Below are positions 17,323 through 60,529 of a stretch of 64,000 bases of DNA, piece by piece (position 1 is the stretch's first letter; each line of letters opens with the position of its first letter). The position numbers and the translations under genes are program-made. A model generated the notes under the pieces. The model saw only the letters and a program-made list of their open reading frames with translations, did no database searches and was not told where the DNA came from. Origin of the DNA: a virus; the IMG/VR virus record IMGVR_UViG_3300046710_000057, positions 22,339 to 86,338 of that record; one strand, 5' to 3'.

Positions 17323-17539
17323 GCTCCTTCTTGTAGTGTGCTTTAGCGAACTCTAATGCAGAAGCATCGTCTACAACTGTTTCATCACCGACAAAATTGG
17401 CCGCACAGTAGACACACGATTTCCGATAACAGTAACCGTAACCACGTTCGTCTCCATGACAACGATAATATGTGCCACAATCTTGAACGACGGCTCTAAA
17501 ACGTTTACGGCAAGGTGGGAGACTGTCAAATAGGCTCAT
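17303..17539 (-). CDS. Hypothetical Cys-rich protein
   Basis: 78-aa ORF coupled to fabG. Confidence 0.55.
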   Translation of the reverse strand: MSLFDSLPPCRKRFRAVVQDCGTYYRCHGDERGYGYCYRKSCVYCAANFVGDETVVDDASALEFAKAHYKKEHEDAQS

Positions 17540-18303
17540 AGACTTGTACCCCCATCAATCACGAACGTCTGACCAGTGATAAAGTCGGCATCTGGCGAGC
17601 ATAGATAGTCTACCATTGCAGCAACTTCTTCCGGCTTGCCGAGTCTACCCATTGGGATAGTCTCTTTCCAATCAGAATCGGCGACTGTACCCTCGAATCG
17701 TTTCTGGATATTCTGGATTGGCGGAGTGTCGATCAGACCAGGAGCGATAGCGTTGACCTTTATGCCATAGTGCATTAGTTCCACTGCCATACTTCGAGTG
17801 AAACCTATGATACCGGCCTTCGTTGCAGCATACACAGCCTGTCCTATATAGCCGCGCAGCCCACTTATACTAGAGACATTGATGATGCGTCCGCTTCGCT
17901 GCCTCATCATTTGCTTGGCTACAAACTTAGTCATGAAGATCAAGCTAGTGAGGTTAATGTTAATGAAATCGTTGATCTGATTATCAGAGGTCCGAACCAG
18001 CAGACTCTCTTGCATAACGCCAGCGTTGTTGACCAGAATGTCAATTTTCTTGTATGTGGCTATGATCTCATCAATGTCTGTTTCAAGATGATTGCGGTCT
18101 GTGATGTCACGTCTAATGACGCGCAACTTCAAACTAGACTGCGTACACTGATCAACGGCAGTCTCCCACAGTTTGTTCATCGACTCTTCGGTCCTGGTCA
18201 GAACGATGACGTTTGCTCCGTGTTCAAGAAATCGTAATGTGATTGCTGTTCCAATGCCGCCTGCGCCTGTTACCACTACAGTCGAGTTGTCATACCAGTT
18301 CAT
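17536..18303 (-). CDS. fabG: 3-oxoacyl-ACP reductase (SDR)
   Basis: TGAGGIG, LVNNAG, NVSS, YAATK, NAIAPG, IPMGRLG..EEVA, FITGQ..VIDGG. Confidence 0.85.
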   Translation of the reverse strand: MNWYDNSTVVVTGAGGIGTAITLRFLEHGANVIVLTRTEESMNKLWETAVDQCTQSSLKLRVIRRDITDRNHLETDIDEIIATYKKIDILVNNAGVMQESLLVRTSDNQINDFININLTSLIFMTKFVAKQMMRQRSGRIINVSSISGLRGYIGQAVYAATKAGIIGFTRSMAVELMHYGIKVNAIAPGLIDTPPIQNIQKRFEGTVADSDWKETIPMGRLGKPEEVAAMVDYLCSPDADFITGQTFVIDGGTSL

Positions 18304-18410
18304 TATGTAACACTCCAAATCAACACACCGACAGCAACCAAAATTGCACACCCTGCAATCTTGAGAAATGTATCAAACCACTCCGTAGGTTCGCCCCCTG
18401 ACCATTCCAT

Positions 18411-18893
18411 TTATTGCTTTCCTCTGACCACATGAATCAAGTTGCCTTCCTGGTCATACGCCTCTCCAGACTCAGGAAGTTCCAATAGGACTTGTCCATC
18501 CTCTTTGAACACTTCGTCTACAGTCTTGCCTGTCTCTATGACATAGTACCCTGTTGAGCCTTCGTTCACAAACGTTGATTTGTAATAGTTGACGTTGGCT
18601 GCCAGTAAGAGGTATCCAGGGGCGCAAATGTCATCGAGATTTGTCAATCCCCATGTGACATAGTGTTCGTAGTTGAGACCGTGCCGATCACAAAACACCT
18701 TGAGGTCTCGACACGAATCGAAAAGTTTCCCATCAATGTGGATGTGATTAGCTTGCTCGCCGTATTCTTCACCTCGTATTTCCCTATACAGTCTTCGCCA
18801 AGCGTATACGATTGCTCGGTACTTGTCCGATTTTGATGTTCGTGATACCTGTAGACATCTTGTTAGCTCTTTGTCGAGATCAAAGTCAGCCAT
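18411..18893 (-). CDS. Hypothetical protein
   Basis: ORF with AGAGGAG RBS. Confidence 0.6.
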   Translation of the reverse strand: MADFDLDKELTRCLQVSRTSKSDKYRAIVYAWRRLYREIRGEEYGEQANHIHIDGKLFDSCRDLKVFCDRHGLNYEHYVTWGLTNLDDICAPGYLLLAANVNYYKSTFVNEGSTGYYVIETGKTVDEVFKEDGQVLLELPESGEAYDQEGNLIHVVRGKQ

Positions 18894-18910
18894 TATGGAC
18901 CATCTCCTCT

Positions 18911-19855
18911 TTATGCTGGCTGATAGGCGACAACCTCCGCCCAAGAGACAGTACTAGTTCCCTCTTTTGTAACTTTGAGTCCTGCTGCTGTGTTCGCTAG
19001 TCGCACTACGTCTTTGAACTCGTAGCCTTTGATTTGTGCAAGGGCAACCATAGCAATGACAGTATCACCGGCTCCGACCACACTCTTCTCTTCTACCTTG
19101 AGAGCTTCTACAGAGAGCATCTCTTTTTCAGAGCAACTAAGAGCGTACAGGCCGTGCCAACCATCTGTTATAATAAGGGTCTGCCAAGCATAATGATTCA
19201 TCAACTCACGAACTGCTTCTTCAGATACCGAGATACTAGCTTCGCCTACGATCTCTCTAAACTCTTTCGAGTTGACGATCACTGTGTCTACATTGTAGTA
19301 GAAGCCGATGTTTTGCGGCTTTGGATTGGCAATGACCGGAATCCTTTTGGTCTCACTGATGTCGAGGATTCGCTGCATCAAACGTTCAGTGACTACTCCC
19401 TTGTTGTAGTCAGAGACTATGATAGCATCGAGGTTCCTGGGTATCAGGTTAGACTCGATTTCCAGATCGACAACAACCTCAGAATCATAGTCGATACGAT
19501 TGATCGGACGACCGTCTTGATCTATGTATCGCAACTTGAACGTTGTGCTGTCAGAGTTTGGCATAAGATAGGGTCGAATACCGGCACGTTGTACCTCGTT
19601 ACTCAACCATTCGGAATGCTCATCATATTCATATACGCCGACCGAGCCAATAAGTGTACACTTGGCTCCTAGATCAATGACATTCATCGCAACGTTAGCT
19701 GCCATACCTGGAGAAGCTGTGTTTTCAACGATTCGATACACTGGTACTTCTACCGCAGAGTGTTCTGGCGAATGTTGATAGCGAACTTCTACCTTGTGGT
19801 ATCCATCCACACAAACGTCGCCTATGACCAAGATGTGAGGTTGTCGTTTTGTCAT
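18911..19855 (-). CDS. rfaE: HldE/RfaE domain I-like sugar kinase (PfkB family)
   Basis: VIGDVCVD, GMAANVA, SDYNKG, NPK, VVGAGDT, ANTAAG. Confidence 0.85.
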   Translation of the reverse strand: MTKRQPHILVIGDVCVDGYHKVEVRYQHSPEHSAVEVPVYRIVENTASPGMAANVAMNVIDLGAKCTLIGSVGVYEYDEHSEWLSNEVQRAGIRPYLMPNSDSTTFKLRYIDQDGRPINRIDYDSEVVVDLEIESNLIPRNLDAIIVSDYNKGVVTERLMQRILDISETKRIPVIANPKPQNIGFYYNVDTVIVNSKEFREIVGEASISVSEEAVRELMNHYAWQTLIITDGWHGLYALSCSEKEMLSVEALKVEEKSVVGAGDTVIAMVALAQIKGYEFKDVVRLANTAAGLKVTKEGTSTVSWAEVVAYQPA

Positions 19856-20109
19856 TTCTTCTTTCTCCAGAGCTTAGCCAGCCATTTTTGGTGGACGGCC
19901 TCGTCGCTTGCCTGTGCTTCCGCCAGTTGCTTTTCGAGGTTTACTATCTGCCTTTCGCAATCCGCCATCCGCAGATTTTCTTGACTTGCCATTTTGTACG
20001 CGGCGTCGCGTAACGACTGGTATATCTCTCTCAGCCGCTTTTGATGTGAAAGCTGATGCTCCAACTGCGATTTCAGGTCCAAGTATTTGGATTGCGTCGT
20101 TGAACTCAT
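19852..20109 (-). CDS. Coiled-coil hypothetical protein
   Basis: Heptad-rich; stop overlaps rfaE ATG (ATGA); nested in the next ORF. Confidence 0.55.
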   Translation of the reverse strand: MSSTTQSKYLDLKSQLEHQLSHQKRLREIYQSLRDAAYKMASQENLRMADCERQIVNLEKQLAEAQASDEAVHQKWLAKLWRKKK

Positions 20110-20584
20110 GTTGAAAATCAAACGGCTTCCAACCAGTCTTACCAATTGGTCTTTGCTTAGGTGATCTCCACCCTCGCTGCACTAGATCATACCGGAAGAA
20201 GTGACCGCCAGGGTATCCTTTGTCGTCTATCCAAAAGTGAAGTCGGCCCTTCGCATCAAAGAAGTGCTCACCATCGAAGAGCCAGTGTTGATTACAACGA
20301 GGACACAGAACAGTGCCGTCATCATTCCATCGAGCGATGCAAACGATTTGTCCTGGTCTGTCAAGCGATACATCAAAGCTGGTTCTATGGAAGCAATAGA
20401 ACAGAACAAATAGCTCTTCTATCTTCTTTCTGGTAGTACTTTCTACCGCTACAGGTTCAGAAGAGTTCCCATCTTCTTCGACAGTTCTTTTGTAGCCTTT
20501 CTTAGACGCAGCTTCAAGGCGTCTTGCAGCTTCCATTTCCTTCTTGGTGCGTCGATGCCGTTTTTTCTTTTCTTCTTCAGCCAT
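19874..20584 (-). CDS. Basic hypothetical protein with CPRC motif and AT-hook-like tail
   Basis: 236-aa ORF; ends KRRGRPPKMAG. Confidence 0.65.
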   Translation of the reverse strand: MAEEEKKKRHRRTKKEMEAARRLEAASKKGYKRTVEEDGNSSEPVAVESTTRKKIEELFVLFYCFHRTSFDVSLDRPGQIVCIARWNDDGTVLCPRCNQHWLFDGEHFFDAKGRLHFWIDDKGYPGGHFFRYDLVQRGWRSPKQRPIGKTGWKPFDFQHEFNDAIQILGPEIAVGASAFTSKAAERDIPVVTRRRVQNGKSRKSADGGLRKADSKPRKATGGSTGKRRGRPPKMAG

Positions 20585-20594
20585 TTGCTTTGCC

Positions 20595-22394
20595 TCACTT
20601 CAGGTGGGATTCGTCACCTGTAAGGATGTACTTCAGTTCATCTTCGGAGAACGTCTGAAGTATCTGCTCGTCTCCCATTATCTCATCGAAGATTTTTTTC
20701 TTGGTCTTGAGAATCTTCAAGACACGATCTTCGATTGTGTTATGACAGATCAGGTCAATGACACTGATGTTTTCAACACCTAAACGCTCAGTTTCTTTCC
20801 ATCCGTCACGGTCTGTTCTGCCGATTCTTTGCGCTACAGTGGCAGGATTGTAAGGCAGGTCGTAATCGACTACCCATCTAGCTGCTTGAAGGTTCAGTCC
20901 ATACTTACCTGCATCGGTCAGCAACAAGACAGCTTGCTTTGGGATTGAATTGAATCGCTTCTTGATCTCGTTGCGAGCGTTCTTGCTGGTGACCTTACCA
21001 CTGATGATCATGACTTCGACCTTATCGCCGAATCTTGCCTCAATATCCCTCTTGAGAATGGGAGTCATTCGCTCGAACTGAGTGAATACCAGAAACTTAC
21101 CTGGGTTCTCTGCTATCGCATCGAGTAATTCGTTGATTTTTCCAGAGCCTTTGATTGTATCGTCCATAAGTTCTGGAGAATCAACGATCTCACGAAGATA
21201 GATCATCTTAGTAATGACCGCAAACTTCGTTTGATAGTAGTCGCGCCCCCTCAGTGTCGTCAACATCTCAAGGGCTTGTAGGCTTTCCATTTCAATCTGA
21301 TCGTACATATCTTTCTGAGCAGGTAGAAGCGGACACAGCACTTGGTTGCGAGTAACCGGAGGTAGATCAGGCATAACGTCGCGCTTCTCACGCCGAAATG
21401 TCACTGGGTTCAGTTTGATGCGAAGTTCTTCTGCCTTGGTAGTTCCTTGTTGACCACCCCAAGGATTCTCCGACATATACTTCTTCTTGAACTTGAGGAG
21501 GTTACCAAAGATTGTTGGGTCTATGTACTCAAGGATGTTGAACAAGTCCTTGATCGAGTTTTCAATGGGCGTGCCGGTCAAAGCGAATCGGTACTTGGCC
21601 TTGATCGACTTTACGAGCGCGGAGGTTTGGCAACCTTGAATGACAGTGTTCCCCTTCTTATCTTGGACGAACTTGCCGGTTGTCTTAATGCGCTGAGCTT
21701 CGTCCAGGCCGACCAAATCCCACTTGATACTCTTGATAGTGGCGATGTCACATCGGACCTGTTCATAATTGGCTATCGTGATTAAGCGAGACCCCCACTG
21801 ATGTCTACGTTCGGCTGGTTCACCATCAACCACGATATAGTCGGCATACTGGTCAGGCACAAACTTGTCGATTTCATCTGCCCACTGGTACTTGAGAGTA
21901 GCAGGGGCGATAATCAGGATGCGTTCGATGTGTTCTTCGTCGGCAAGCTGAACGGCAGCCGAGAGGAACTGAGGAGTTTTTCCTAGTCCCATCTCATCGG
22001 CCAGCAATCCTCGTTCAACGTACCGTAGCCACCGAGCGCCTACAACCTGATAGGGATAGAGTGGTAGCTTGAGGTTTTGGATATTCAGTTGAGGGACTGC
22101 CTTTCCCTCTCGCATTGCACCGATGAGTTCTTGCCGAGCAATGTACGGCTTGATCGCTGAGTCTAACTCTTTACTAAGAGAGAAGTCAGGGTCGCCTACA
22201 CCCTTCAGATACTTGGTTATCTTCGTGTACGCATGAAACGAGAAGTAGAACTTCTGTGACTTTTGACCCCAGTGAGCGCCGTAGTAGTCCTCTCTCATAC
22301 CCAGTTCACGAGTAATCTGATTGAACTTCCTACCTTCGACTGCAAGAGAGATTATGCCTGGTGCAACAAGGTCCAGTGCTATCACGGTGCTCAC
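20595..22394 (-). CDS. SNF2-family helicase/ATPase
   Basis: LLADEMGLGKT, DEAQ, LTGTPIEN, GLNLQ, QRIGR. Confidence 0.93.
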   Translation of the reverse strand: MSTVIALDLVAPGIISLAVEGRKFNQITRELGMREDYYGAHWGQKSQKFYFSFHAYTKITKYLKGVGDPDFSLSKELDSAIKPYIARQELIGAMREGKAVPQLNIQNLKLPLYPYQVVGARWLRYVERGLLADEMGLGKTPQFLSAAVQLADEEHIERILIIAPATLKYQWADEIDKFVPDQYADYIVVDGEPAERRHQWGSRLITIANYEQVRCDIATIKSIKWDLVGLDEAQRIKTTGKFVQDKKGNTVIQGCQTSALVKSIKAKYRFALTGTPIENSIKDLFNILEYIDPTIFGNLLKFKKKYMSENPWGGQQGTTKAEELRIKLNPVTFRREKRDVMPDLPPVTRNQVLCPLLPAQKDMYDQIEMESLQALEMLTTLRGRDYYQTKFAVITKMIYLREIVDSPELMDDTIKGSGKINELLDAIAENPGKFLVFTQFERMTPILKRDIEARFGDKVEVMIISGKVTSKNARNEIKKRFNSIPKQAVLLLTDAGKYGLNLQAARWVVDYDLPYNPATVAQRIGRTDRDGWKETERLGVENISVIDLICHNTIEDRVLKILKTKKKIFDEIMGDEQILQTFSEDELKYILTGDESHLK

Positions 22395-22402
22395 CTTCTC
22401 TC

Positions 22403-22729
22403 TTACTGAGGTTCTGATGGAGTAACGAACTCCTTGATTTTGTCTTGTAGTGTTTCGTCGGAGACAAGGATAACGAGTACCCCTGTCAACAATCTGGTAA
22501 TTCTGTTCAGTTGGCGCGTGTTCGCAGACTCGATTTGACGAATCAATATGCCGCTCGCTGTATGCAGATACACCATCTTCTTGAGAAGATAGGCCGTTCT
22601 GACTAAAACGAGGAGTGACGCCAACAATGCTATAATGTTGACAACGAGAATGATTGTCATTTGGTTCTCCTCTGGAAAAGGTGAAAGCCCCAGCCCTGAT
22701 ACCAGGGCTTTCGATTCCTTATTCTTCAT
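22403..22729 (-). CDS. Hypothetical membrane protein
   Basis: Hydrophobic segment; probable start at 22660. Confidence 0.55.
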   Translation of the reverse strand: MKNKESKALVSGLGLSPFPEENQMTIILVVNIIALLASLLVLVRTAYLLKKMVYLHTASGILIRQIESANTRQLNRITRLLTGVLVILVSDETLQDKIKEFVTPSEPQ

Positions 22730-23795: not shown

Positions 23796-23801
23796 TCTGA
23801 T

Positions 23802-24137: not shown

Positions 24138-24157
24138 ACTCTCTCCCCCTCGATCTG

Positions 24158-25096: not shown

Positions 25097-25110
25097 TTTC
25101 CGGTTGCCTC

Positions 25111-32363: not shown

Positions 32364-33314
32364 TGACCTCTCTCCTTTCTATACGCGATATATGACTTCT
32401 TGATGCACAATCCACAACACTTACCTGATTTCGGACTGTCCAACTCGATTGATTCTGTCATCTTCTCAGTAGGTGCTCCACACCTGGTTACAGTGTCATC
32501 ATCATCGTTAGGGCGATGGAAGAAATAGTACATACCATTCGGTCCACGTCCAGGTTTCTTTACCCAGATTGCCACTATATTCTCCTAACTACACCCTTTA
32601 CCACTACCTACTATTATTGTCCGGTTTGATCTTGGGTATGTGTAGTTTCATCACGGCGAGCAAGCTATCGTGTCATGAACAGTAGTCCGACGCCCATACA
32701 GGACACGCCTAATCCCATAATCGTTCCGGCCAATGTTGGACTAGCGACGCACCAGATCGCTCCACCCATGCACACCAACATAAAGACTGCTTGGATTGCT
32801 TTCATGGTTCACTCCTTCTTGGTAGCCGAGATATGCCAATCGTGTTCACCACAACTTGACGGACACGGTGACTTGTAACCAGCTAAGCACTCCGCACTAG
32901 GGCTGTAGCAAGGAAACAGGTCTGATAACTCACAGGCACAATCTGCATCCTCGTTGAATAATCCGTCGTAACCTTGTTCTTTCAAGGCATTTTTCACGAC
33001 ATCTTTCAGCGACAACTTCTTCATTGACAATGCCTCTCCATTGCTGCTTGCAGCTTGATCTCGAACTCTTCGTGCGGTATCCGTAGTTTCTTGTCACCAC
33101 TGAGCAGATTCATATGTCCGCCAGTGAGTGACCCCCAGATATTCTGGGACATCACAAACCCATCCTCAACATCACGATACGCAATGATCGTCTGATAGCT
33201 GTAGAACAGGGTTATCACTTCCGGTATGGTCACTTTCAACGTGTCCAAATTGCCGTAGTGCTTCGTCTTGTGTGGAGTTCCGTATGATTCCACTCTTGGT
33301 AGCTCTCTGAGCAT
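32360..33314 (-). other. Small hypothetical CDSs (32360-32575, 32809-33030, 33021-33314)
   Basis: Co-oriented ORFs with RBS, Cys-rich. Confidence 0.55.
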
Positions 33315-33570
33315 CTCTGAGAGTCCTCCTTTGCTTTCGCTCGTGAATCTCACGCGCCAATTCACCGACAAGGTGATGGGGAGAGTAGTGATTTTCAGCC
33401 TCACTCAAGTCGATATTGAACACAGATTCGAGTTCCAGAATGATCTCGTAAATCGCTTTGTCGTCGTGACAATTGACTTCGCAAAACATTGTGTCAGGTT
33501 TGATCTTCTCAATTGACACTCTCATCTGTCGGCTGATAATCAGCGCAACCTGCTCGAAAGTACTCTGCAT
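33172..33570 (-). CDS. ACP-like protein lacking the phosphopantetheine Ser (Ser to Asp)
   Basis: AGGAGA RBS; MQSTFEQVALIISRQMRV...HDDKAIYEIILELESVFNIDL aligns with ACP helices; directly downstream of fabF. Confidence 0.65.
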   Translation of the reverse strand: MQSTFEQVALIISRQMRVSIEKIKPDTMFCEVNCHDDKAIYEIILELESVFNIDLSEAENHYSPHHLVGELAREIHERKQRRTLRDAQRATKSGIIRNSTQDEALRQFGHVESDHTGSDNPVLQLSDDHCVS

Positions 33571-33598: not shown

Positions 33599-34837
33599 TT
33601 ATTTGTTTCGCCCAAATACGAGCGAGACATTGAATCCGCCGAATCCAAAACTGTTGGAAAGCACTGTATTGACTTCCCAACTCATTCCTTCATTGCAAAC
33701 GATCTTGCTTGGATTGAACTTGCTATCCAAACATTCGACGTTGATAGTCGGCGGAATATAGTTGTGTTGAATTGCTCCAATAGAGATCAGAGCTTCTATC
33801 GCGCCTGCTGCGCCTTGCATGTGACCGGTAACCGGCTTGGTCGAACTGACAAGCTGAAAGATAACTGGGCCAAACCCACTAGGAAACAACTCTTCAATTG
33901 CCCCCATTTCAGCTTCGTCGCCTTGGATAGTTCCAGTTCCATGTGCGTTGATATAATCAACGTTGATTGGTTGAATACCTGCGCTTTGCAGGGCGAGCCT
34001 CATAGCGTCGTATGCACTGTCAGCGTCAGACTGAACTACAGACATCGAGCTTGAAGCTGTGCCGTAGCCGAGGACTTCTGCATATATATACGCTCCTCGT
34101 CTTTGTGCGTGTTCCCATTCTTCTAAAACGAAGATTGTTGCTCCTTCGCCAAGAACAAAACCAGATCGGTTTTTGTCGAATACTTGATATTTGTCATCTC
34201 GTGACAACGCTCGAATTGTATCAAATCCGACATGGATAAACGGTACAATCGGATTGTCTGACCCACCGGTTACTACTACATCCAGAGACCCACTGCGAAT
34301 CATTCTGAATGCCTCTCCAATAGCATGACCACCACTGGCACAAGCTGAAGAGACCGTAAACGATGGGCCTTCAATCTTCAGGTCCATTGATACAGAGGCA
34401 GCAATCATACCTTGAGAGCCATTGTTGAAGTGGGAGTCCACTCGACCGGTTGACACAAATCGGTCATAGTGTTTGAATGCTATTTCCATAGCGCCCATAC
34501 TTGAACCAATCACTACGCCAACACGATGAAGATTGATGTAAGCATCTGGGCGGTTGTCCGGCGTACAACTATCTTTCCAAGCGTTACGTGCAGCGATCAT
34601 AGCATACAACGACACTTTATCTTGTGATGTTCGTTGTTTGATTGGAATATCGTCCAGAAACGACAAATCCTTGATCTCTGCTGCAATTTGCGCGTGACAA
34701 GTTGTAGCGTCAAACCTTGTGATTGGTCCAACTCCAGACTTTCCTTCGCTGACTGCCTTCCATACCTCTTCAGGGGTGTTGCCAACCGGACTGACTACGC
34801 CGATACCAGTGACGGCAACTCGTTTGTTTACGAACAT
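33599..34837 (-). CDS. fabF: 3-oxoacyl-ACP synthase II
   Basis: RVAVTGIG, SACASG (Cys), NAHGTGT (His), K..TGH..GAAG (His), SNSFGFGG. Confidence 0.95.
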   Translation of the reverse strand: MFVNKRVAVTGIGVVSPVGNTPEEVWKAVSEGKSGVGPITRFDATTCHAQIAAEIKDLSFLDDIPIKQRTSQDKVSLYAMIAARNAWKDSCTPDNRPDAYINLHRVGVVIGSSMGAMEIAFKHYDRFVSTGRVDSHFNNGSQGMIAASVSMDLKIEGPSFTVSSACASGGHAIGEAFRMIRSGSLDVVVTGGSDNPIVPFIHVGFDTIRALSRDDKYQVFDKNRSGFVLGEGATIFVLEEWEHAQRRGAYIYAEVLGYGTASSSMSVVQSDADSAYDAMRLALQSAGIQPINVDYINAHGTGTIQGDEAEMGAIEELFPSGFGPVIFQLVSSTKPVTGHMQGAAGAIEALISIGAIQHNYIPPTINVECLDSKFNPSKIVCNEGMSWEVNTVLSNSFGFGGFNVSLVFGRNK

Positions 34838-35364
34838 GATGTGTCCTCCTCTAACTCGTCTGGGTGACCTGAGCGACTACGCAATCTTACAATACTTACC
34901 AGTGGCGTGTCAAACTTGTTTTCGAGGTACGCCTTGAGAGTATACCCATGTTCGTTGATAGCATCCAGGTCTGAAGATGTGAACATCATCTCTTCTGGTA
35001 GCTTGTTGCCCTTTGCCGTTGACTCGTGCCAAACCAGTAGGAACTTGTGTAGTGTGGAAACACGCACATTGAAAGTCCCATTATCTTGGTCGTTGTCAAT
35101 CGTAACGTCGTACAGATGTTGACAGTTAGAACAAGCCCACCTATATCCCTTATAGATGAAGTTCAAGTCAATACCAACCGACATTTCGACCGGCTCACGA
35201 CAGCAGAAGCATGAAAAGTTGAGGTGCGACTGAATGCAATCAGTCGTTTCTGTGTTTCCCATAGTAGTAGTATTCACCTCGTTGGTGTTGTTTATGGTCT
35301 CCTCCTTGGTGGTTGCTTGGTTAGCTGGAACAATCCTCGATTGACCCCAGAGTGTTTTACCCAA
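34828..35364 (-). CDS. Hypothetical protein with CxxC motifs
   Basis: ORF coupled to fabF start. Confidence 0.55.
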   Translation of the reverse strand: MGKTLWGQSRIVPANQATTKEETINNTNEVNTTTMGNTETTDCIQSHLNFSCFCCREPVEMSVGIDLNFIYKGYRWACSNCQHLYDVTIDNDQDNGTFNVRVSTLHKFLLVWHESTAKGNKLPEEMMFTSSDLDAINEHGYTLKAYLENKFDTPLVSIVRLRSRSGHPDELEEDTSCS

Positions 35365-38817: not shown

Positions 38818-39627
38818 TCAACCTCCCACTAACAAGTCGCTCACGCTGTCGCGTTTGATTGCTTCAGCCTCTCTTAGAAGCTCTTCATTGGAACATTTCT
38901 TGCCTTCGACCTTAATGGTCTTGTCCACCGAGTCACACTTCTGCGGACACAGTGAACGCATAGTCTGAATGGTAGGCAGGTAGTTACCCTGGACGTGAGG
39001 ATTCTCACGAGAGAAGATCATAACTTGGCAGTTGTGAACGTGTTCACTAGGGGTAGTGACCAGCTTATGATACTGGGCGTCGTCTAACTGTTCAATGACA
39101 GTCCTGAAGGCCAGCAATATCTCGCCGTGTGTGACGATGACAACGTTCTCATCTGGATGTAGCGTGTCGAGGAACTCTTCTATTCGGTGACAGACTTCAG
39201 GCATAGTCTCGCCGTTCTGTGGCCGGAACCAAAAGACGCTCATATCCTGGTCTTTCAGGTCAACACTAGGATAGCGTCCGTCATTATCGCCTTTGTCGAT
39301 GTCGCCCCAGTCTCGATCTCGAAGCGCGTTTGTTTTGACCCAACGTGCATCAGGTATTGCCAGATGACCTGCCGTTTCCTTGGTACGAATGAACGGAGAC
39401 ACATAGAAAGCACAGTTATCCTTGAATATGTGCTCCATATTGTCGCGTACCCAATCACCTGTCACTTGAGCTTGGCTTACACCTTGAGGAGTTAGCCGCC
39501 ATAGAGAACAATGCTTGTGGTAGAACCCATCTGATAAGTTGACCGCTTGACCGTCACGGTACAGGTGGTCGATAACGTTGCCTTCCGATTCTCCGTGCCG
39601 AACTAGGATAATGTTTCTAGGCAGCAT
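38818..39627 (-). CDS. Histidine phosphatase (phosphoglycerate mutase-like)
   Basis: LVRHGES, SPFIRTKETA, GET, VTHG. Confidence 0.9.
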   Translation of the reverse strand: MLPRNIILVRHGESEGNVIDHLYRDGQAVNLSDGFYHKHCSLWRLTPQGVSQAQVTGDWVRDNMEHIFKDNCAFYVSPFIRTKETAGHLAIPDARWVKTNALRDRDWGDIDKGDNDGRYPSVDLKDQDMSVFWFRPQNGETMPEVCHRIEEFLDTLHPDENVVIVTHGEILLAFRTVIEQLDDAQYHKLVTTPSEHVHNCQVMIFSRENPHVQGNYLPTIQTMRSLCPQKCDSVDKTIKVEGKKCSNEELLREAEAIKRDSVSDLLVGG

Positions 39628-39629: not shown

Positions 39630-42600
39630 TTAGTCTCCCAACGATGCGTCCACTTGCTCGTCAGCACGCTCGTTTTTGTCGTCGTCGTGTGCATCACTCC
39701 AGCCATTAGCCCACGCTTGGCGGAGGTCGGTAGCGTGCAGCACACACTCTTCGGCCTTGACGCCATCCATGTAGCTCTTGTAGCCTAGTCGGTAGGCTTG
39801 AGTTGCGATAACATCCTTAGCGGCTTCTTCTTGACGTTTACTTGCCACTGCATCCTCCTTTGGTTTTGGCACTAAAATGACTCCTGTATATGGAGCTAAA
39901 CTATTGAGAACGTGGTCTGTCACTTGACAATCTCCAGTTCTCGCGGCATAAACTGAAGCAATAGACCATCATCGAATCTTACTTTGATGGGGTAGGTTGC
40001 AGCCGACTCTGCTATACGTTCGACTGTTCCTACCTTGCCTACATAGTCATGATAGTGAGGGGCCGCGTTTATCACTTCGATGACCTTGACTTGTGACTTG
40101 CCGACTTTGAGTGCGTTCCACTCATCAGTATTCATAGTTACCTCACGACCGGCACACTTGCCTCTGCTGTTAGATGAGGCCGGTTGCGTTCAATCCAAGC
40201 AAGCGCAGGGCCAGCCTCGACAGAGCACTCGAACCCAACGCCGTGCTTCTTGCGGCAGTACTCGAATAGATCGTCAAGCTCGTGGTTTTTGCCCTCGAAG
40301 AACTTAGCCACATAGTCTGCTGGGTAGTCGAAGCCCCACTCACAGCGAGCGAGTGCTAAGATTTCCTCGTCGCTTGCTTGCTCAAACCACTTCGTTGCAT
40401 CGAAGTTAGCCTCATGAATGTAGTCGTCGGAATGAACCTCGGCAGTTATGGCGTCGTGTTCTATATCATCCTCGAAGACTACAGACCCAATTCGATCTTG
40501 GGTATCATCATCATGCTCGCCAATCACGCTATGCTCGTAATCTCCAGGCTCAGCAAAAGCCAACTCGTCGGCAAGTGCCGTGATAGCGTCAACCATATCT
40601 TGCCGGTATTCGGTTTCCAACTCTATTTTTATCTTCACGGATGTCTCCTTTCGTTAATCGTTCGGCCAGCAATCTGGCCCTTCTGCACCGCACCTCATAC
40701 ACCGACACTCATCAGGGTCAGCAGAGGTTGAGCAGTTTATGTGATACCAAACGTCACGCTTCAGGTCTGTGTCGTAAACCAGTTGCCAACTCTCTTTGAA
40801 TGGCACTTCGCCTTGCGTGCGGATGGGTTTACCTGGAACTGGAATCAGCATTAGCTTGCTCGCTTTCTCGTGCTTCACGAAAACCTTCTAACCAGCAACT
40901 CGCTAAGTCCTTATTGTCGCGAACAGCAAGGATATGCAGCCGGAGTATATCCCTATGAACGCGAGTGTGTACTTGGTTACTCTGGACATTTGACTGGCTC
41001 CTTGCTTATGATGACATCTCCACACTCAGAACAGACAACTGCAACGTCGCCTGGTTCAAGATCGACTGGGATGCCTGCTTCCTGTGGGGTAAGTAGATGG
41101 CAGTGATAGCAAGAGTGCTGTATGTCGCGCCCTTGCTTAGCAGCTAGACAGTGAGGACAGTCGCAGCTACTCATTAGTTGTCACCTCCCAACCGTTCAGG
41201 CCCATAGGTCTTGTCTTCAGGGTCAAGCACAGGGTCAGGGTCACGCTTCGGCTTGTCTATCGGTTCCATTTTCAGTAGCTTGACCATTTTCCATTGAAGC
41301 TCATCAAGATAGACACCGGCATCAGCCAGAGCTTCCTCCTGATCGGCTTCAAGTAGTCCGCTTGTCGCATCTTCGCCGAGGTTGTTTACCATAAACTCCT
41401 CAGCTTTCTCGATGAGGCGATTCAAGTCTCTGATCTTAGTCCAGACATCATCTGGCTCGTCTATAACTGATAGGCGACCATCATCATTGTCACTCAATCT
41501 ACGTCACCTTTCTTCCACTTGACGACTTCCCCCTTGGGGTCGCAACGCGGACACAGCACTGGCTTACCGCATACTGAGCAAACGTATGGTAGGACTACAC
41601 TTCTGGTTACTCGCACCCACAGTAGCCACACAGGGATACAGGTGGCAATCAAGATAACGAGTTGTGCAATGATAAGCCCAAAGTTGATTGCTGGAAAATG
41701 GTTGAGGTAAATCATTGGAACCCTTCTTACGGTCGCTTGTCACATGCTCTCCCATTGATGGGGCAGACCACGACCGTATACACGGAATCATCCGTGCAGA
41801 TAGTCTTGATGACTTGGTTGAGATGAGTGTGGCACGAGTTACAATGCGCTCCCTTGGCTGAGATTTCGTACTCTGCTTCGTTGCTACACTCGTGCCGCAC
41901 CCTTTGTCCCTTGTAGTCGCACTGTGGCATTAAGCCACCTTCCTTTCAGACCCTCGCCTTAGAATGTTGGCGAGCAGCAGTGCGTCATACACTTGCAGGC
42001 GCGTGGGATTGTCCAGGTCAGCCTTTTGCAGCGACAATCGTAGCGCGTCTTCGATTTTCCTGTAGGGGTTCTTTCGACCAAACATAATCTTACCCCTTTC
42101 GATCTAGCTTAGTCTTGGTGATGCTGATGAGCTTTTGTGAACTGGCTCTTCAGGCTGCCTGCTATGCCGATAGCTTCGCTGATCTCTTCGCGCACAGGGC
42201 CAGGGTCAACGTTCTTGAAGGCCGCGTGCAAGGCCGATTCTATCTTACCCAATTGCACGTCCAAACCAACACAGAACGTGCCTTTGCCTTTCTTGACTCC
42301 GATGCTTTTCTCTCCGAACATAGCGACTACTTCCTTTCTTCCTGCTCGCAATGAGCGCAATGTGGGTTTGCTTGTACAGGCCCAACAACGTGGACACCGC
42401 CACCGATGGGCTTTTCGCAATTGGCACACACGAGATTGTATTCGTGCGTGACCTTGTTGTAGGTTAGATACCAGGGAGCACAGCAACACTTACTGTGGAC
42501 GTAGAAAAGCTCATCCGGCATGTTTGTCCTCCCCCAGTGACTCTGCTCTGCCGAACGCCAACTCAGCAATCGACTGAGGCTCAGTTCCCTCTATACCGTC

Positions 42601-52540: not shown

Positions 52541-52716
52541 TTAATTTGAGGTTCTCAAGATGGTGCGACTCTCTCTTGGTTACAGTGTGGAAGGAACCGA
52601 AAAGGTAATCCGCGTCGCGGTGACTTTATAGGTGAACAGCGCCCATCCAAGGACTAGGAGAGCTATAACCGTCGCACCTTCTTGGGAACTTTGGATAAAG
52701 CGGGGTAAGTGGGGAA

Positions 52717-53120: not shown

Positions 53121-53228
53121 CATTATGGGAGTGTTGGTTGGAATCTTTCTCGGTTGGTATATCGTGTCGAATGTGCTGAGACCTCGCGTGTCGAGAGCCA
53201 TCATCGCTCAGATCAATGAGGTGGTCAG

Positions 53229-54617: not shown

Positions 54618-54794
54618 ATGGAGGGTACTCAAATGATCACAAAGCTCTACAACTTACTATTGTACTGGGCTGAGGTGGAAAGCCCTTGGCCTTATGCCAT
54701 TCTCTTGGCCGGTACGCTCTTGGCATTGGTTTTTGGGGTCCATCCTACTGCCCACGCTCATTTGGTTAGAGTGTGTAGGACGATAACTAGATAG

Positions 54795-55095
54795 GCTCTC
54801 AAAGTGGGGCGACGCTCCTCAAGCTACAGTGGTCGGAAACAAAGCTGCAAACTATGGCGGAAACCACCATCCCAGGGCTTGAAAAATCTGGTCGTGTGTC
54901 GCCCCACTTTTGGAGCTTTCCCTGATCACCAAGAGATTGACCAACACGGAACGACTCGGTGGAGACGGTTTCAGCATCCACTTGATCAGGGAACTTTTGA
55001 TAAATGTGGAGCGTAGTAAGAAATGCGTTCCTAGCGCAAGAAGCCCTCAGAGTTCACAAATACACGTCCGAGAACTACATCCTCTGAGGGCTTCT
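54795..55095 (+). ncRNA. Candidate structured RNA with three long helices upstream of the ACP-like gene
   Basis: 13-bp, 11-bp and 14-bp perfect inverted repeats. Confidence 0.45.
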
Positions 55096-55117
55096 AATTC
55101 ATTCGAGGAGTTTTAAC

Positions 55118-55354
55118 ATGGGTACGACTTTCGAGCGAGTACAAAAGGTCGTGGTCAACCGGCTGAAGGTGTCTGCTGATGAGGTCAAGGAAGCGGTGAC
55201 CTTTGAAGACCTGGGGGCTGACGAACTTGACAAGATCGACGTGGTGATCGGTATTGAGGACGAGTTCGAGATCAACATTTCCGATGACGACTGGGATGGG
55301 GTCAAGACTATTGGTGAGGCGGTCACCTTAGTCAACAAACTGGAAGGCCGATAA
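55118..55354 (+). CDS. Acyl carrier protein homologue with Ser to Glu at the phosphopantetheine site
   Basis: TFERVQKVVV..L.V...FEDLGADELD..DVVIGIEDEFEINISD; GAGGAG RBS. Confidence 0.9.
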   Translation: MGTTFERVQKVVVNRLKVSADEVKEAVTFEDLGADELDKIDVVIGIEDEFEINISDDDWDGVKTIGEAVTLVNKLEGR

Positions 55355-55747
55355 TGCTGGAACCGGCTCCTCCACATGGTCGGCTGATGAAAGACGGTGA
55401 TGTCAGGGTCAGCAGGCACTCTCATGTCGATGAAATCGACACGTTGGGGGAACGTGTACGAATTGTCGGTAGTTTTCGACATGTCCTGACGTTTTGTACG
55501 AAACCTCTACACTTATCAACATGTGTCGATGTTTCGGTACAGTTGGATAGAAACCCCTACAAGTAGCAACAAGTGTTGGGAACTCTATCCGAGACAGACG
55601 GCGTATAAAGAAGTAGCAGATACACGATTAGTGACGGACAACCGAAGAAAGACCCAACATCTCAGCAAGCCCCTGGAGTCCATAAACGACTCTGGGGGTT
55701 TTGCTGATTTTGGGAACACATCAGAATCGTGCGGCGTATAAGAAGTT

Positions 55748-56191
55748 ATGAGACGGTTTTGGTCCAAAGTCCATATTGGCGGTCCTGATGACTGCTGGGA
55801 ATGGCAGGCCAGTTGTTTCGGAGAGGGTTACGGTAGTTTTTGGTACAAACGGAAGAACGTAGGTACTCATCGAGTTGCTTACGAACTTGGAGTTGGTCCT
55901 ATTCCAGAAGGTCAACAGATTCTTCATACTTGTGATAACCGAAAATGCTGTAATCCTGCTCACTTGTTTCCTGGGACACAACTGGACAACATAAGAGATA
56001 TGGACAGCAAAAAGCGAAGAGTTGGTAACGTCAAACTGACCAACTCTCAGATTATTGAGATTCGTCAAAAGTACATTCCAAGGGTTTGTACTCAACAACA
56101 ATTGGCCGAAGAATACGGCGTGGTTCAATCGCACATTGGACGTATAGTTAGAAACGAACAAAGAGAGGAGGAAAAAACCTATGAGACTTAG
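55748..56191 (+). CDS. HNH homing endonuclease with HTH (copy 3)
   Basis: RFWSKV, CWEW, LHTCDNRKCCNPAHL. Confidence 0.9.
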   Translation: MRRFWSKVHIGGPDDCWEWQASCFGEGYGSFWYKRKNVGTHRVAYELGVGPIPEGQQILHTCDNRKCCNPAHLFPGTQLDNIRDMDSKKRRVGNVKLTNSQIIEIRQKYIPRVCTQQQLAEEYGVVQSHIGRIVRNEQREEEKTYET

Positions 56192-56533
56192 AATTGGAAT
56201 TGACGGCAGGATACTGGGGTTTCTCGGTGTCCACTGGACGCTTGTGGCAAGAGATGTTGCGGAAAGCGATTTGGACAAGGCAGCGTGGGTTTGTGGATAC
56301 CTTGACAAGCTGACTGTCAACGTCCGCTTCCTTACTGGAGCGATATTCGCCACACTGACCCCAAACGTTCCTCCAGTCGTATAACATTTGACGATTTCCG
56401 ATTGTTTACCGACCGTGGTCGGAAACCTGGGCAGGATGCCCTATGGCTAGTGCAGCTAAGCGTTGAACCTTGGATGGAAGTAAACACCAAGTTGAGAAAG
56501 TTCCGCGAACCTGGCGAACGGTTGCCATTTCAT

Positions 56534-56680
56534 GTGGGAGTAGTTTAATACAAAGGCTGAACGGAATAAGGTACTGTCCTTGCATGAAGAGTAGTCTACC
56601 ATGCGAGTGTAGGCAAAACGTCTAGGTAGCGTAAGACCGGTTCAACCTAGAAGTTGGGGGTTCGATTCCCTTCTCCCACT
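56534..56680 (+). ncRNA. Enlarged tRNA-like RNA (147 nt)
   Basis: GTGGGAG/CTCCCAC acceptor; GGGGG-TTCGATT-CCCTT T-arm; about 65-nt structured D-loop insert; 7-bp anticodon stem with 17-nt loop. Confidence 0.6.
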
Positions 56681-56691
56681 TCCTGCCTATT

Positions 56692-58939
56692 ATGATCAAC
56701 AGAGACATCGACATCGAAGTGTTTGGCTATATGGGTGGCGGTGGCGTCACGGTCTTCTCGTGTCTTGATGTGCAGGAGACCTTCAAATGGACCGAGGAAG
56801 CTGTCGGACTGTGTATGGAGTGTCGCAACAGATATAGAGACGGAAACTTGCCACCTTGCTGCGATTGCAGCGGACTCAACCACTCAGACGATCACAATTA
56901 CTTCGAGGAGTTTGATTGGTAGCGAGAGCGTAACTGGGGAGCTACTCAGGAACCTCCTCTTCTGAGTAGCTCCTACTTTTTGGAGGTAATGATGAGAGAT
57001 CGGTTTTTTGCAAGTTGTTCTTTCGAGAATGATTGTTGGGGTCTGGAAGCAGGACTGATATTGGACCGTTGGGATGGCACTGAACTCACTTTGCGCATCG
57101 TAATCGGTCCATTTCACTTTTCTACCGGCGTGACAATAATCAAACCGAAAGAATACTGCGAATGTGGCGACCATGACTAGAGCAGAGCACATAAAAATCG
57201 TCAAAGACGGTTTGCACAAGTTCATTGACGAAAAAATCAACGAAGACAGTAAAGTGGACGTAGACCTGAGTCAAGGGATTTGTGAAATCCTAAGAGATGG
57301 CTATGTAGAGACGAGTCGCGAACCAAACGACACATACTCACTGGTCGTCTTGGTCAATGGTGGGGCGCACAACACTGAGAGAAAGGAAGAATGATGGATA
57401 TAGACTGGGACGATTGGCATTCAGTTGCTTGCGTAGCCTTATGGCCTATAACAGCCACAATAGGTCTTTGGATGGTTATAGGTGTTACGATCTTTAGAGG
57501 TCTGGGATACCTTGCGCGATTGGTAGAACGGAAGGAAGAATGAAAGCAGTCCACTTTGAACTTGGAGCAAATCCTGACGTGAAGACTACTTGGAGCATAG
57601 GTCTCCAAGGTGGCGAAGTAACTACTGGTCACAGAGTCGTCGCTCTCTGGTTTGGTCGTCGGTATCTTGCGATGACTTGGCTTCCAGGCTGGCGATTCAG
57701 CCTTCGGCGTCGGCGACCGAGCAAAGCGATTCCTCAGTCGATTGGGGATGTCATCAACGTTGCGATAGACGATGCTGGTGGCATACATTTGACCACTGTC
57801 ATCACTGATCAGAGGATATGGGACAAGCTGGCTGTTGGCGGTCCCATTCGACGTATTACCGCAGAAGTACGGAGGAAACCTTGAAAACCAATATAACTGT
57901 AGCAATCGTTCTTGTTGTCCTAGTGGTCTTGGTTGGTGCGATCTGGTATAACGCAGCAGTGAACTGCGGACAAAAGCCTATCGTTGGCACTGTGATCGCC
58001 AAGAACATCTGTCAGCACTGGAACTACTCTCATGACCAAGTAGCCGTTCAGGTCAAGACAGGCGGCGGCTATTCTCTCTACACGATCAATGTGAAGTTTG
58101 CTCACTATGGCGCTTTGCAAGTCGGCCATACTTACAGGTTCATATTCGATCAAGGTTTCTTTGCTGATCAGAAACCAATCCAGATTGAAGAGATCACTCC
58201 TGTACCCCAAGTGCCTATGCCTCGAAACGTAAACAGTTTGGCATAAGTGCCGACATTTCGTAACAAGGGGTGATCGGATGGTCAAGCGTATTTCGGACGC
58301 TGAGAAAGAAGACGATGTGGCCTTAGAGATAGGCCGAGCGGTGATAGAAGCGATGCGCATGGCTTCTCAGGACTATGGAGGGGCAGACATTGAAATCTGT
58401 CCGACTGATGGGACTGCATTTCACGTTCTTGTGCGGCGTTGTTCGGAAGACGTGACTCGAATCGAGAATTGTCGCTTACCTGAGTCGGTATGGGGTGAAG
58501 AAGATGGCAAGGGGTAGAATTGACGAAATCGTACTGGTCCAAAAGAACTCTGCGGTAGGACCATCAGATAAACCCACTCTATGCCGACAGGTATACTGGT
58601 TTGATTTGGGCGTCGTATGTGAACGTTGCGCTGCGGCATTTGGACGTAGAGTTCTGGGACTGGCAACATTCTACGAAACCCAATGCGATTGTTGCAAAGA
58701 GACGGTGGTTTGCACTGAACGAAGAGATTACAAACGAATTGTCGTAGAGGAGTAAAATGGCACAGAAGTATATTCGCAAGTGGGGTTGTGGTGCTAATGA
58801 CTGGCACGAACTCAAGAAGAACCGAAAGACGATGACCAAGTGTGGCAGGAAGATCACCGATGGCAAGGTGATAGACGAGGAAGAGTTCAAGTCTATGCCT
58901 AACCGATACTATTGTCACCGTTGTAGGGAAACTGTGTGA
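56692..58939 (+). other. Small hypothetical CDSs (56692-56922, 56980-57180, about 57174-57394, 57540-57884, about 57881-58246, 58278-58517, 58495-58755, 58757-58939)
   Basis: Coupled plus-strand ORFs. Confidence 0.55.
56939..56972 (+). terminator. Hairpin, possible intrinsic terminator
   Basis: GAGCTACTCAG/CTGAGTAGCTC followed by ctactttt. Confidence 0.45.
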
Positions 58940-59472
58940 TGGAATACGTCTGTAGGCGAGGTTTTGGTAGGAGAAATAAACCTTGGCACGTCCTTGACGA
59001 CAATCGGTTAAAGTGTGGCGCACACATCAACAACGGTCTAATAATAGACGAAACTGAGTTTCGTATGATACCAAGGCTGTTGTGTACTCGCTGCAAACAG
59101 ACTGATGTAGTTAAGATGCGACGTGAGCAAGAAAAGCGTACCAAGGTGAAAAAGAAGAAAGGTATCAAGCCACAGCCTCTCGATCAGCGTTTTTGGAATA
59201 CAGTCAAGAAGGCTGGACCTGACGAATGTTGGGAATGGCAAGGGTGCATTACTGAAGACGGCTATGGCTGGTTCAGAATGAACAGACAACGTTCAGTCTT
59301 AGCTCATAGGTTAGCTTATGAACTGACAATTGCACTTCTTCCTCCTCCTGGTTCGCGCCATCTAATGCGTGTCCGTCATAAATGCGAGAACAAAAGATGC
59401 TGCAATCCTGCTCATCTATATTCTTCGTGGAATAGGAAGAAAGATGGAATCGTACAAACTACCTTCGCTTAA
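58936..59472 (+). CDS. Zinc-binding domain fused to HNH endonuclease (copy 4)
   Basis: C-terminal RFW..V...CWEW...AHR...RHKCENKRCCNPAHL. Confidence 0.8.
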   Translation: MMEYVCRRGFGRRNKPWHVLDDNRLKCGAHINNGLIIDETEFRMIPRLLCTRCKQTDVVKMRREQEKRTKVKKKKGIKPQPLDQRFWNTVKKAGPDECWEWQGCITEDGYGWFRMNRQRSVLAHRLAYELTIALLPPPGSRHLMRVRHKCENKRCCNPAHLYSSWNRKKDGIVQTTFA

Positions 59473-60529
59473 ACTTGGCAAACATATCGTGCCTATACCA
59501 ATTATCCTTGGCGGAATGGGTGTAGGGATAACAGATGGCTATATGGCAGGTATGGCAGCCGAGGAAAGAATTGCCGGTACGATTGCCTCGGTCGGCCTAG
59601 TCCCAAGAAATTGTCCAGGTGCTACTTACGAAATCGAGTGTAGTCATGGTCTCTACAGAGAGATTGGAGTAGCCAGACAAATCTCTCCGAAGGGTATCAT
59701 CGGCGTCAACATCATGGTGGCTCTGACCAACTATGAAGAATTGGTCAAGACTGCCATTGAAGACGACATTGACTACATCATCTCTGGAGCCGGTCTACCT
59801 CTTGCTCTGCCGAAGCTCGTTGGCGAGAGAGGCAAGGATATTGCTCTAATCCCCATCGTTTCGTCTGCTCGTGCTGCCGATCTTATCTGTAAACGTTGGT
59901 GGAGAGACGGACATCTCCCTAATGCTATCATTGTAGAAGGGGCTGCTGCTGGCGGTCACTTGGGCGTGGCGAGGGCTGAGGTGGATACCTGGGGTATGCA
60001 GACGTTAGAAGCGGTTTGTAAAGAAGTTTTGCAGATTGCTAAAGAATGGGAGTTTTCTACTGACATTCATATTCCTGTAATAGCTGCTGGAGGAATATGG
60101 GACGGCAAAGACATTGTTCAAATGTTCAATGCTGGATGCGAAGGTGTTCAGATGGCAACACGGTTCATGGCGACTTCTGAATGCCCATTGGACGGTTCTT
60201 GGAAGCAATGTCTGGTAAACTCGAAGCCGGAAGACATGCTACTTATTGACAGTCCTGTTGGTCTTCCAGGTCGAACTTTAGGCGGCAGATTTGCGAGAGA
60301 AATCCTCGCAGGTGAACATAAACCAATCAACTGTCCTTATCACTGTCTCAAAACGTGTGACCCCAATAAAGCTCAGTTCTGTATTGCTGATGCTTTAATT
60401 GCAGCTAGACATGGCGACCATAAAAACGGATTTGTGATGGCAGGAAAAAACGCTTATCGAATCAACGAGATTGTACCGATTAGGAAACTTGTTCGACAAT
60501 TGGTGCAAGAAGCTGAAACAGCATTATGA
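59447..60529 (+). CDS. FabK/FabX (nitronate monooxygenase-family) flavoprotein with a probable 4Fe-4S cluster
   Basis: GGMGVG, SGAGLP, EG..AGGHLG, AAGGI, QMATRF, C-x3-C-x3-C-x7-C. Confidence 0.85.
   Translation, partial: ESYKLPSLKLGKHIVPIPIILGGMGVGITDGYMAGMAAEERIAGTIASVGLVPRNCPGATYEIECSHGLYREIGVARQISPKGIIGVNIMVALTNYEELVKTAIEDDIDYIISGAGLPLALPKLVGERGKDIALIPIVSSARAADLICKRWWRDGHLPNAIIVEGAAAGGHLGVARAEVDTWGMQTLEAVCKEVLQIAKEWEFSTDIHIPVIAAGGIWDGKDIVQMFNAGCEGVQMATRFMATSECPLDGSWKQCLVNSKPEDMLLIDSPVGLPGRTLGGRFAREILAGEHKPINCPYHCLKTCDPNKAQFCIADALIAARHGDHKNGFVMAGKNAYRINEIVPIRKLVRQLVQEAETAL

Follow-up and report, generated by a model that had tools for sequence, protein, structure and literature searches.

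Several described systems come close to the genes considered here. In Helicobacter pylori, FabX converts decanoyl-acyl carrier protein (decanoyl-ACP) to cis-3-decenoyl-ACP (PMC8626469), and this pathway is the basis of the proposal made below. Cyanophage lipid desaturases are known phage lipid genes (PMC5776448), and fabG-acpP-fabF clusters have been flagged as viral auxiliary metabolic genes (AMGs) in predicted prophages (PMC8224337). Of apo-ACP and holo-ACP, the former is the stronger inhibitor of sn-glycerol-3-phosphate acyltransferase, and overproduction of ACP halts growth (reviewed in PMC3896788). Here we describe five genes, encoding three enzymes of fatty-acid synthesis (FAS) and two ACP look-alikes, in a 64,000-nucleotide (nt) stretch of phage DNA (the window), which comprises bases 22339-86338, the middle part, of the 128,636-bp IMG/VR record IMGVR_UViG_3300046710_000057. 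Coordinates are those of the window unless the genome is named.

As for the look-alikes, the Vibrio phage ICP1 (MW794148.1, 57120-57782) has two adjacent ACP-like genes, annotated as hypothetical, of which the first reads LDELD, with Glu, and the second MDSLD, with Ser, in the region of the phosphopantetheine serine. Other phage ACPs (Bajun, phiXF1, eugene) keep the DSL motif. No paper on phage ACP look-alikes lacking the serine was found in the literature.

The five genes lie at 17.5, 33.6, 55.1 and 59.4 kb, on both strands. They are spread over both genome arms and three or four transcription contexts, and do not form an operon. An earlier note on this DNA had placed a fabG, a fabF and a FabK/FabX-family flavoprotein in separate regions at 17.5, 33.6 and 59.4 kb and had reported two ACPs lacking the serine, all of which we found as described (the substituting residue is Glu in ACP1 and Asp in ACP2):

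17536-18303, minus strand: FabG-like classical short-chain dehydrogenase/reductase (SDR; 3-oxoacyl-ACP reductase-like), 255 aa (Pfam, NCBIfam, PDB)
33172-33570, minus strand: ACP2, orphan ACP-fold protein, 132 aa, with Asp at the position of the phosphopantetheine serine (alignment, fold)
33599-34837, minus strand: FabF-type beta-ketoacyl-ACP synthase, 412 aa, strongly diverged (Pfam, NCBIfam, PDB)
55118-55354, plus strand: ACP1, AcpP-derived look-alike, 78 aa, with Glu36 for Ser (PF00550, 28.2 bits)
59444-60529, plus strand: FabX-type FMN/[4Fe-4S] acyl-ACP dehydrogenase/isomerase homologue, 361 aa (Pfam NMO, PDB alignment, tree)

The best explanation of these genes, to which we give roughly even credence, is a loose set of FAS enzymes that depend on host ACP, together with ACP mimics that cannot be loaded.

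FabX-type flavoenzyme

The NMO-family flavoprotein is classified as FabX-type, not FabK, by its residues and structural matches. Its open reading frame (ORF) spans 59369-60529 (plus strand), with the called gene starting at 59444, and the Pfam NMO domain is recognized with E 4.5e-42. The best PDB match is H. pylori FabX (7e1q, E 2.3e-63, 217 bits), aligned end-to-end (9k7h was also aligned), while FabK structures reach at most 88 bits (5e-24). The motif C-x3-C-x3-C-x7-C, listed in the earlier note, reads exactly so (C-PYH-C-LKT-C-DPNKAQF-C): CPYHCLKTCDPNKAQFC of the phage protein aligns to CVSNCVAPC...C of H. pylori FabX, and all four cluster cysteines are invariant in 21 aligned sequences. 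This four-cysteine site stands in place of the NAD(P)H-binding part of FabK.

With residue roles in catalysis, flavin mononucleotide (FMN) binding, cluster binding and ACP contact taken from the structure paper (PMC8626469), the phage protein retains the catalytic His182 and its partner Ser273, the FMN ligands (Asn99, Glu175, Gln240, Thr243), Arg164, which contacts ACP, and the cysteines of the cluster (C300, C304, C308, C320). His182 and the FMN ligands fall into invariant columns of the alignment. Cellular FabX copies are stand-alone chromosomal genes. No FabX-type gene was found in cultured phages, and the profile scan of IMG/VR gave three distant loci only. The tblastn matches of FabX and FabF in the phage collection were unannotated virome or "phage" contigs resembling bacterial fab operons, and were rejected as relatives.

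Carrier protein look-alikes

ACP1 and ACP2 were not filed as ACPs, because the phosphopantetheine serine of the D-S-L motif is absent from both. ACP1 reads GADELD, with Glu encoded by GAA, where all eight homologues have GADSLD. It matches the NCBIfam ACP models at 1e-19, and its AlphaFold2 (AF2) model is a four-helix ACP with a predicted local distance difference test (pLDDT) value of 90 and residue 36 at the start of helix II. With an isoelectric point of 4.2 it is as acidic as bacterial AcpP, and the acidic residues of helix II are kept. As judged from alignment and model, ACP1 is thus a canonical ACP in all but the serine.

ACP2 lies 28 nt 3' of the fabF stop codon and has its own GGAG. 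Asp occupies its serine column, while all eight aligned homologues have Ser there. Its similarity to known sequences is low (phmmer to ACP1, 7e-4; TIGR00517, only 3.6e-7), and an exhaustive HMMER search found no ACP2 homologue among 1.8 billion representative proteins, so that an alignment for better modelling could not be built. The single-sequence AF2 model (pLDDT 62) shows the ACP helices, then a long helix and finally a C-terminal tail that is disordered (about 50 aa, low confidence). Still, the top 50 Foldseek matches of this model in PDB are all ACPs, with a template modelling (TM) score of about 0.6 (by target), and its Atlas language-model features point to "acyl carrier protein" clusters (0.92). 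Helix II of ACP2 is less acidic than that of ACP1. The predicted complex of the FabF dimer with ACP2 residues 1-95 scored 0.00, which is no evidence either way.

Given their residues, neither ACP1 nor ACP2 can be phosphopantetheinylated or acylated at the canonical site; therefore, they would have to act by binding.

Condensing enzyme and reductase

The phage FabF consists of the ketoacyl-synt (PF00109) and Ketoacyl-synt_C (PF02801) domains, and its best PDB match is FabF of B. subtilis (9e-87). The Cys-His-His triad, described earlier as intact, is so: C166, H299 and H339, together with K334, fall into invariant columns of the alignment with 17 cellular FabFs. At the same time, none of the 8000 homologues scored is more than 45% identical to the protein, which scores below the cut-off of the fabF equivalog model TIGR03150 (392.9 bits vs 493.75) and just reaches the subfamily model PRK07314 (387.9 vs 387).

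The fabF and ACP2 genes lie among small early-type ORFs. The FabF profile scan yielded 80 loci, most of them at the ends of short contigs, and contained no second example of fabF beside a serine-less ACP: three of the 80 loci have a nearby ACP, in all cases a canonical host-type acpP with DSL.

As a separate observation, some large IMG/VR viral contigs have a mid-contig ketoacyl synthase that is 32-36% identical to the phage FabF, with no ACP within 6 kb (L177, that is, IMGVR_UViG_3300032334_001259, 338 kb; L178, L184, L186-L195, L198-L199). In a quick tree these viral synthases cluster apart from cellular FabFs.

The ORF of the FabG-like protein (17536-18351, minus strand) is open to a GTG at 18351, and gene callers start it at M17 (18303). 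The protein matches Pfam adh_short_C2 with E 2.6e-62, its top PDB matches are nearly all FabG, and it keeps TGxxxGxG, NNAG and the Ser-Tyr-Lys residues (YxxxK). Its score against the subfamily model NF009466 is just over the cut-off (223.2 vs 222).

Dependence on host ACP

Six-frame hidden Markov model (HMM) searches of the whole 128,636-bp genome revealed no AcpS, FabD, FabH or FabZ/A, so the absence of FabD, FabH, FabZ and AcpS, initially noticed in the window, extends to the entire record. The same searches gave one ketoacyl synthase (KS) and one PF00550 match. Searches with ACP queries (phmmer and hmmsearch, whole genome) gave neither a third ACP-like ORF nor an ACP bearing the serine; hence, a normal ACP and a full FAS set elsewhere in the genome, named in advance as a finding that could explain the genes away, were looked for and not found. 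Because neither a loadable carrier nor AcpS nor a malonyl transferase is encoded by the phage, its three enzymes are expected to act only on host holo-, acyl- and malonyl-ACP. The identities of the genes, their intact catalytic residues, the lost serine, the ACP folds, the lack of the remaining pathway genes and the affinity of FabX and ACP1 to Armatimonadota are observed; enzymatic activity, the use of host ACP, any effect on lipids and all binding partners are inferred here.

Origins of the genes and the predicted host

FabX has thousands of cellular homologues. The closest ones are 53-58% identical to the phage protein, and every named one comes from metagenome-assembled genomes of Armatimonadota. 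In the maximum likelihood tree (113 rows) the phage protein is sister to a clade of 19 rows, with support of 97 in the Shimodaira-Hasegawa-like approximate likelihood ratio test (SH-aLRT), and all eight labelled rows of this clade are Armatimonadota; the phage end branch is long (0.82). Among 151 Armatimonadota genomes the best FabX, 57% identical, was found in the genome denoted G035. AcpP of the same genome is 57-58% identical to ACP1, clearly above the best match of ACP1 in a word-indexed search of 5.8 billion proteins (47%). Because of this match, ACP1 is best read as a captured host acpP in which Ser36 was later replaced by Glu.

For the other genes the picture is different. FabF is 37-42% identical to Armatimonadota FabFs; relative to the G035 copies, identity is only 35-39% for FabF and FabG (FabG, 35%). 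As far as the comparisons reach, there is no identifiable donor of FabF, FabG and ACP2. Comparison with host copies, suggested earlier as a check, thus gave an affinity to Armatimonadota for FabX and ACP1 and no donor for FabF and FabG. Since the former two genes have this affinity and the latter two have no traceable donor, the set appears to have been assembled piecemeal, by acquisitions of different age or evolutionary rate.

The most likely host of the phage is an Armatimonadota bacterium, to go by these affinities. The GC-content is 53-54% in G035 and 47.7% in the phage. In ten FabX-bearing Armatimonadota genomes, possibly incomplete, no FabA scored over the cut-off, and FabZ-like matches reached about 40 bits only; FA_desaturase was absent from eight of these ten possibly incomplete genomes, including G035. 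Because there is no FabA and mostly no desaturase, FabX is probably the route of the presumptive host lineage to unsaturated fatty acids, as in H. pylori.

Phage genome and its relatives

The record is a complete tailed phage of about 129 kb (CheckV completeness 100%), with genes for the large terminase, the portal and an S78 prohead protease. The replication genes encode a split DnaE-type polymerase, a primase, DnaB- and SNF2-type helicases, ribonucleotide reductase and SbcCD; there are also four tRNAs and many HNH endonuclease genes. In the window, the minus strand carries the genes as far as about 52 kb; beyond this point they are encoded on the plus strand, and the switch matches the GC-skew.

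The terminase is 27% identical to those of SPO1-like phages, the polymerase is about 30% identical, and megablast against cultured phages gave no match; by these comparisons the phage is far from any cultured phage and its lineage is novel. Single-protein pattern scans with FabX and FabF over IMG/VR and GTDB genomes revealed no close relative. The only terminase relative in IMG/VR is 53% identical and lies on an 11.5-kb contig, too short to contain these genes.

DNA of the phage is present in several peat metagenomes. The contigs from other samples that bear the fab and ACP genes are all 100% identical to the phage record, and since they are independent, the genes are no assembly artefact.

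Proposed function and alternative explanations

In the proposed loose set, FabX (an "anaerobic desaturase") would make the cis double bond on C10-ACP and so commit synthesis to unsaturated fatty acids, FabF, as KS, would elongate cis-3-decenoyl-ACP, and the FabG-like ketoreductase would reduce the elongation product. The trio thus seems to fit steps that are specific to, or limiting for, the unsaturated branch, and the enzymes may be AMGs topping up host elongation or biasing it to unsaturation during infection. ACP1, with its acidic docking helix kept, would be an unloadable mimic occupying host ACP-binding proteins; since it is a near copy of host AcpP, a role as competitor or decoy is the most economical reading. 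ACP2 would most likely be an accessory partner of FabF, to judge from its position and presumed co-transcription with fabF. The recurrent choice of an acidic residue at the serine position suggests selection for charge, perhaps imitating the phosphodiester of holo-ACP.

Several observations weigh against this explanation. FabF deviates at 39 of the 138 columns (28%) conserved to 94% or more among cellular FabFs, while by the same measure the phage FabX deviates at 8 of 112; in the tree, the end branch of FabF measures 1.56 substitutions (median 0.05), with no supported neighbour, and such divergence could reflect a changed substrate or role. FabG scores under the cut-off of NCBIfam TIGR01830 (241.7 bits vs 297.75). 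Of R129 and R172 in E. coli FabG, which we take to be the ACP-docking arginines, the former has an Arg counterpart in the phage protein, while Tyr occupies the position of the latter. Moreover, fabG is situated within the replication module, with a heptose-7-phosphate-kinase-like gene two genes away, and the SDR may serve another pathway. We know of no characterized FabX homologues outside Helicobacter. Promotion of fatty-acid synthesis and competition with ACP look contradictory unless separated in time or target, and the host assignment is based on two genes only, FabX and ACP1. Finally, no phage relative carrying any of the five genes was found in the collections searched, and with all other contigs 100% identical and no relatives there is no sequence diversity. 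Hence dN/dS is impossible to calculate, and neither co-occurrence nor purifying selection can be shown.

According to the earlier note, phage enzymes acting on host acyl-ACP and decoy ACPs occupying host enzymes form one system. The dependence on host ACP and the unloadable look-alikes stand, while the unity of the five genes is not supported, given their dispersal on both arms, their differing evolutionary histories and the presence of a serine-less ACP without Fab enzymes in ICP1. The five genes are therefore treated as a loose set, not as one co-inherited system, and because of ICP1 the serine-less look-alikes are more likely a module independent of the Fab enzymes. A fully integrated system, in which the decoys block host FAS and acyltransferases while co-adapted phage FabF, FabG and FabX escape, so that acyl-ACP is rerouted and membranes are remodelled, appears unlikely. 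It would account for the adjacency of ACP2 and fabF, for the close mimicry of host AcpP by ACP1 and for the strong divergence of FabF and FabG, including the putative ACP-docking residue of FabG, which could be an escape from the phage's own mimics; inhibition of acyltransferase by apo-ACP also agrees with it. Yet the genes are of different evolutionary age and scattered across 43 kb of both arms, FabX is little diverged and keeps the ACP-contact Arg164, so that it is not visibly "immune", ICP1 lacks any Fab gene, and there are no relatives in which co-inheritance could be seen. Quite unlikely, in our estimate, is a reading in which the acidic residue at position 36 is selected because it mimics the phosphodiester of holo-ACP, so that unloadable, high-affinity competitors, combined with still functional enzymes (the phage's own diverged FabF and FabG and a host-derived FabX), shut down host use of acyl-ACP and direct the remaining flux to unsaturated fatty acids; if true, this would be a two-part takeover of lipid metabolism undescribed for any virus.

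The divergence of FabF (its end branch and the 39 altered columns), the orphan state of ACP2, which has no homologue, and the position of FabG, under equivalog cut-offs and near an HldE-kinase-like gene, also agree with neo-functionalization of these three proteins, for a specialized lipid, for a 3-hydroxyacyl group of a glycolipid or glycan tied to the heptose pathway of the phage, or as non-catalytic binders; the genome indeed has GmhA-like, GHMP-kinase, GT9 heptosyltransferase, GT1/GT2 and epimerase genes. We nevertheless consider it rather improbable: the KS keeps its triad and Lys and the SDR its tetrad, FabF and FabG come out throughout as the best family and PDB matches, a KS requires a thiol-bearing carrier, which ACP2 without the serine is not, and no acyltransferase or thioesterase is seen in the gene maps. 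Very improbable is the explanation that the fab genes and ACP copies play no part in infection, being passenger DNA or host captures in decay. The lack of relatives, the loss of the key residue in the ACPs and the HNH genes flanking FabX, a hint of recent mobile insertion, could be read this way, but all frames are full length with catalytic residues intact despite the large divergence (FabF has no stop codons at 43% identity), in both ACPs it is specifically an acidic residue that takes the place of the serine, as in ICP1, and each gene has a ribosome-binding site or a coupled start and follows the orientation of its arm.

Neighbouring genes and other features of the genome

The immediate surroundings of the five genes contain the following features:

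34828-35262, minus strand: 144-aa gene, possible zinc-ribbon protein, with a 10-nt overlap with the start of fabF (translational coupling; called gene)
55667-55701, plus strand: terminator-like hairpin, a 14-bp stem and T-run, closing the short ACP1 unit (consensus scan only)
58939-59472, plus strand: HNH homing-endonuclease-like gene overlapping the FabX start (Pfam HNH_3)
60526-60984, plus strand: HNH homing-endonuclease-like gene overlapping the FabX stop (Pfam HNH_3, 6e-11)

The 144-aa product has no Pfam match, and Atlas gives weak leads only (viral clusters; Zn_ribbon_21 by structure, TM 0.39/0.72). Its interpretation as a FabZ-like hotdog protein was rejected, having no support in the HMM search or Atlas. 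The overlap of HNH genes with both the start and the stop of FabX suggests that the cassette is possibly mobile between co-infecting phages. That the upstream HNH gene splits the N-terminus of FabX was considered and rejected, as all 361 aa align end to end with FabX. Other HNH_3 homing-endonuclease-like genes include 55748-56191 and 61976-62431.

The gene near fabG (18911-19855, minus strand) encodes an HldE-kinase-domain-like PfkB protein (TIGR02198, 201 bits, below the cut-off). Elsewhere in the genome there are genes for a SIS_2 (GmhA-like) protein and a GHMP kinase (genome 9814-10386 and 11000-11971, both minus strand), and, right after the head genes, for a GT9 heptosyltransferase-family protein, a GT1/GT2 fusion and an extended-SDR epimerase (genome 105077-106342, 106926-108743 and 108736-109821, plus strand). 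Together these genes seem to make up much of a heptose nucleotide-sugar pathway, and may serve glycosylation of the virion or of the host envelope.

The split DnaE-type polymerase belongs to the region of 2756-5668, 6351-7763 and 8097-9188 (all minus strand). Its PHP-domain part and main body are encoded separately, and an N6/N4 DNA methyltransferase gene and a 3D-domain gene lie in between. Directly 3' of the primase gene, a 196-aa protein (12805-13395, minus strand) with a weak Sigma70_r2 match is a candidate phage sigma factor. In the early region, an 80-aa gene (region 39630-39923) weakly matches PF04957 (RMF, ribosome modulation factor) and adjoins a histidine-phosphatase-family gene (His_Phos_1, 38818-39627); the two may be involved in takeover of host translation. 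Near the genome end there is one ORF of 3906 aa (genome 114969-126689, plus strand), to which no family was assigned.

Comparison with known systems

The phage FabX and H. pylori FabX (PDB 7E1Q-7E1S; PMC8626469) share the NMO-family TIM barrel, His182, the FMN ligands, the four-cysteine [4Fe-4S] site and Arg164. The loop between the third and the fourth cysteine, four residues shorter in the phage protein (x7 vs x11), is the sole sequence difference noted. The FabX homologue described here is phage-encoded, and its nearest relatives are in Armatimonadota, not in Campylobacterota. Should its enzymes prove active, the phage would be the first one found here to encode the enzyme that commits synthesis to unsaturated fatty acids by the FabX route.

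Like the cyanophage desaturases (PMC5776448), the genes described here are phage genes predicted to alter host unsaturation starting from host substrates. The cyanophage enzyme is a membrane desaturase, while the present phage would use an oxygen-independent-style FabX/FabF route, a counterpart in the anaerobic pathway. Again provided that the enzymes are active, viral control of membrane unsaturation would be extended from cyanophages to bacteria of anoxic soil from a phylum hardly represented in culture.

The bacterial fabG-acpP-fabF cluster (for example, that of G035) comprises the same three protein families, but the phage genes are dispersed, with fabF preceding ACP2 instead of acpP preceding fabF, and the ACPs lack the serine. 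The clusters from predicted prophages (PMC8224337) keep a normal acpP in the host order and may be host flanks.

Inhibition by E. coli apo-ACP (PMC3896788) shares with the role proposed for ACP1 the principle that an ACP free of its prosthetic group inhibits by binding. In E. coli the effect arises artificially, on overexpression of a protein of the cell itself, whereas the unloadable state of the phage protein is genetically fixed. The look-alike of ICP1 is similar in its small acidic ACP fold and in the acid at the Ser36 position (LDELD vs ADELD in ACP1); ICP1 has no Fab enzymes, while here ACP2 adjoins the phage fabF and ACP1 is traceable to host acpP. ACP1 would thus have an unusually clear origin for a serine-less look-alike, as a captured host acpP, and ACP2 is the only case so far of such a look-alike beside a phage condensing enzyme, so that binding partners of serine-less look-alikes become directly testable with defined proteins. 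The genes belong to kinds already known, phage lipid AMGs and phage ACP mimics, and do not form a categorically new system. They also allow an Armatimonadota host to be predicted for a novel peat phage lineage.

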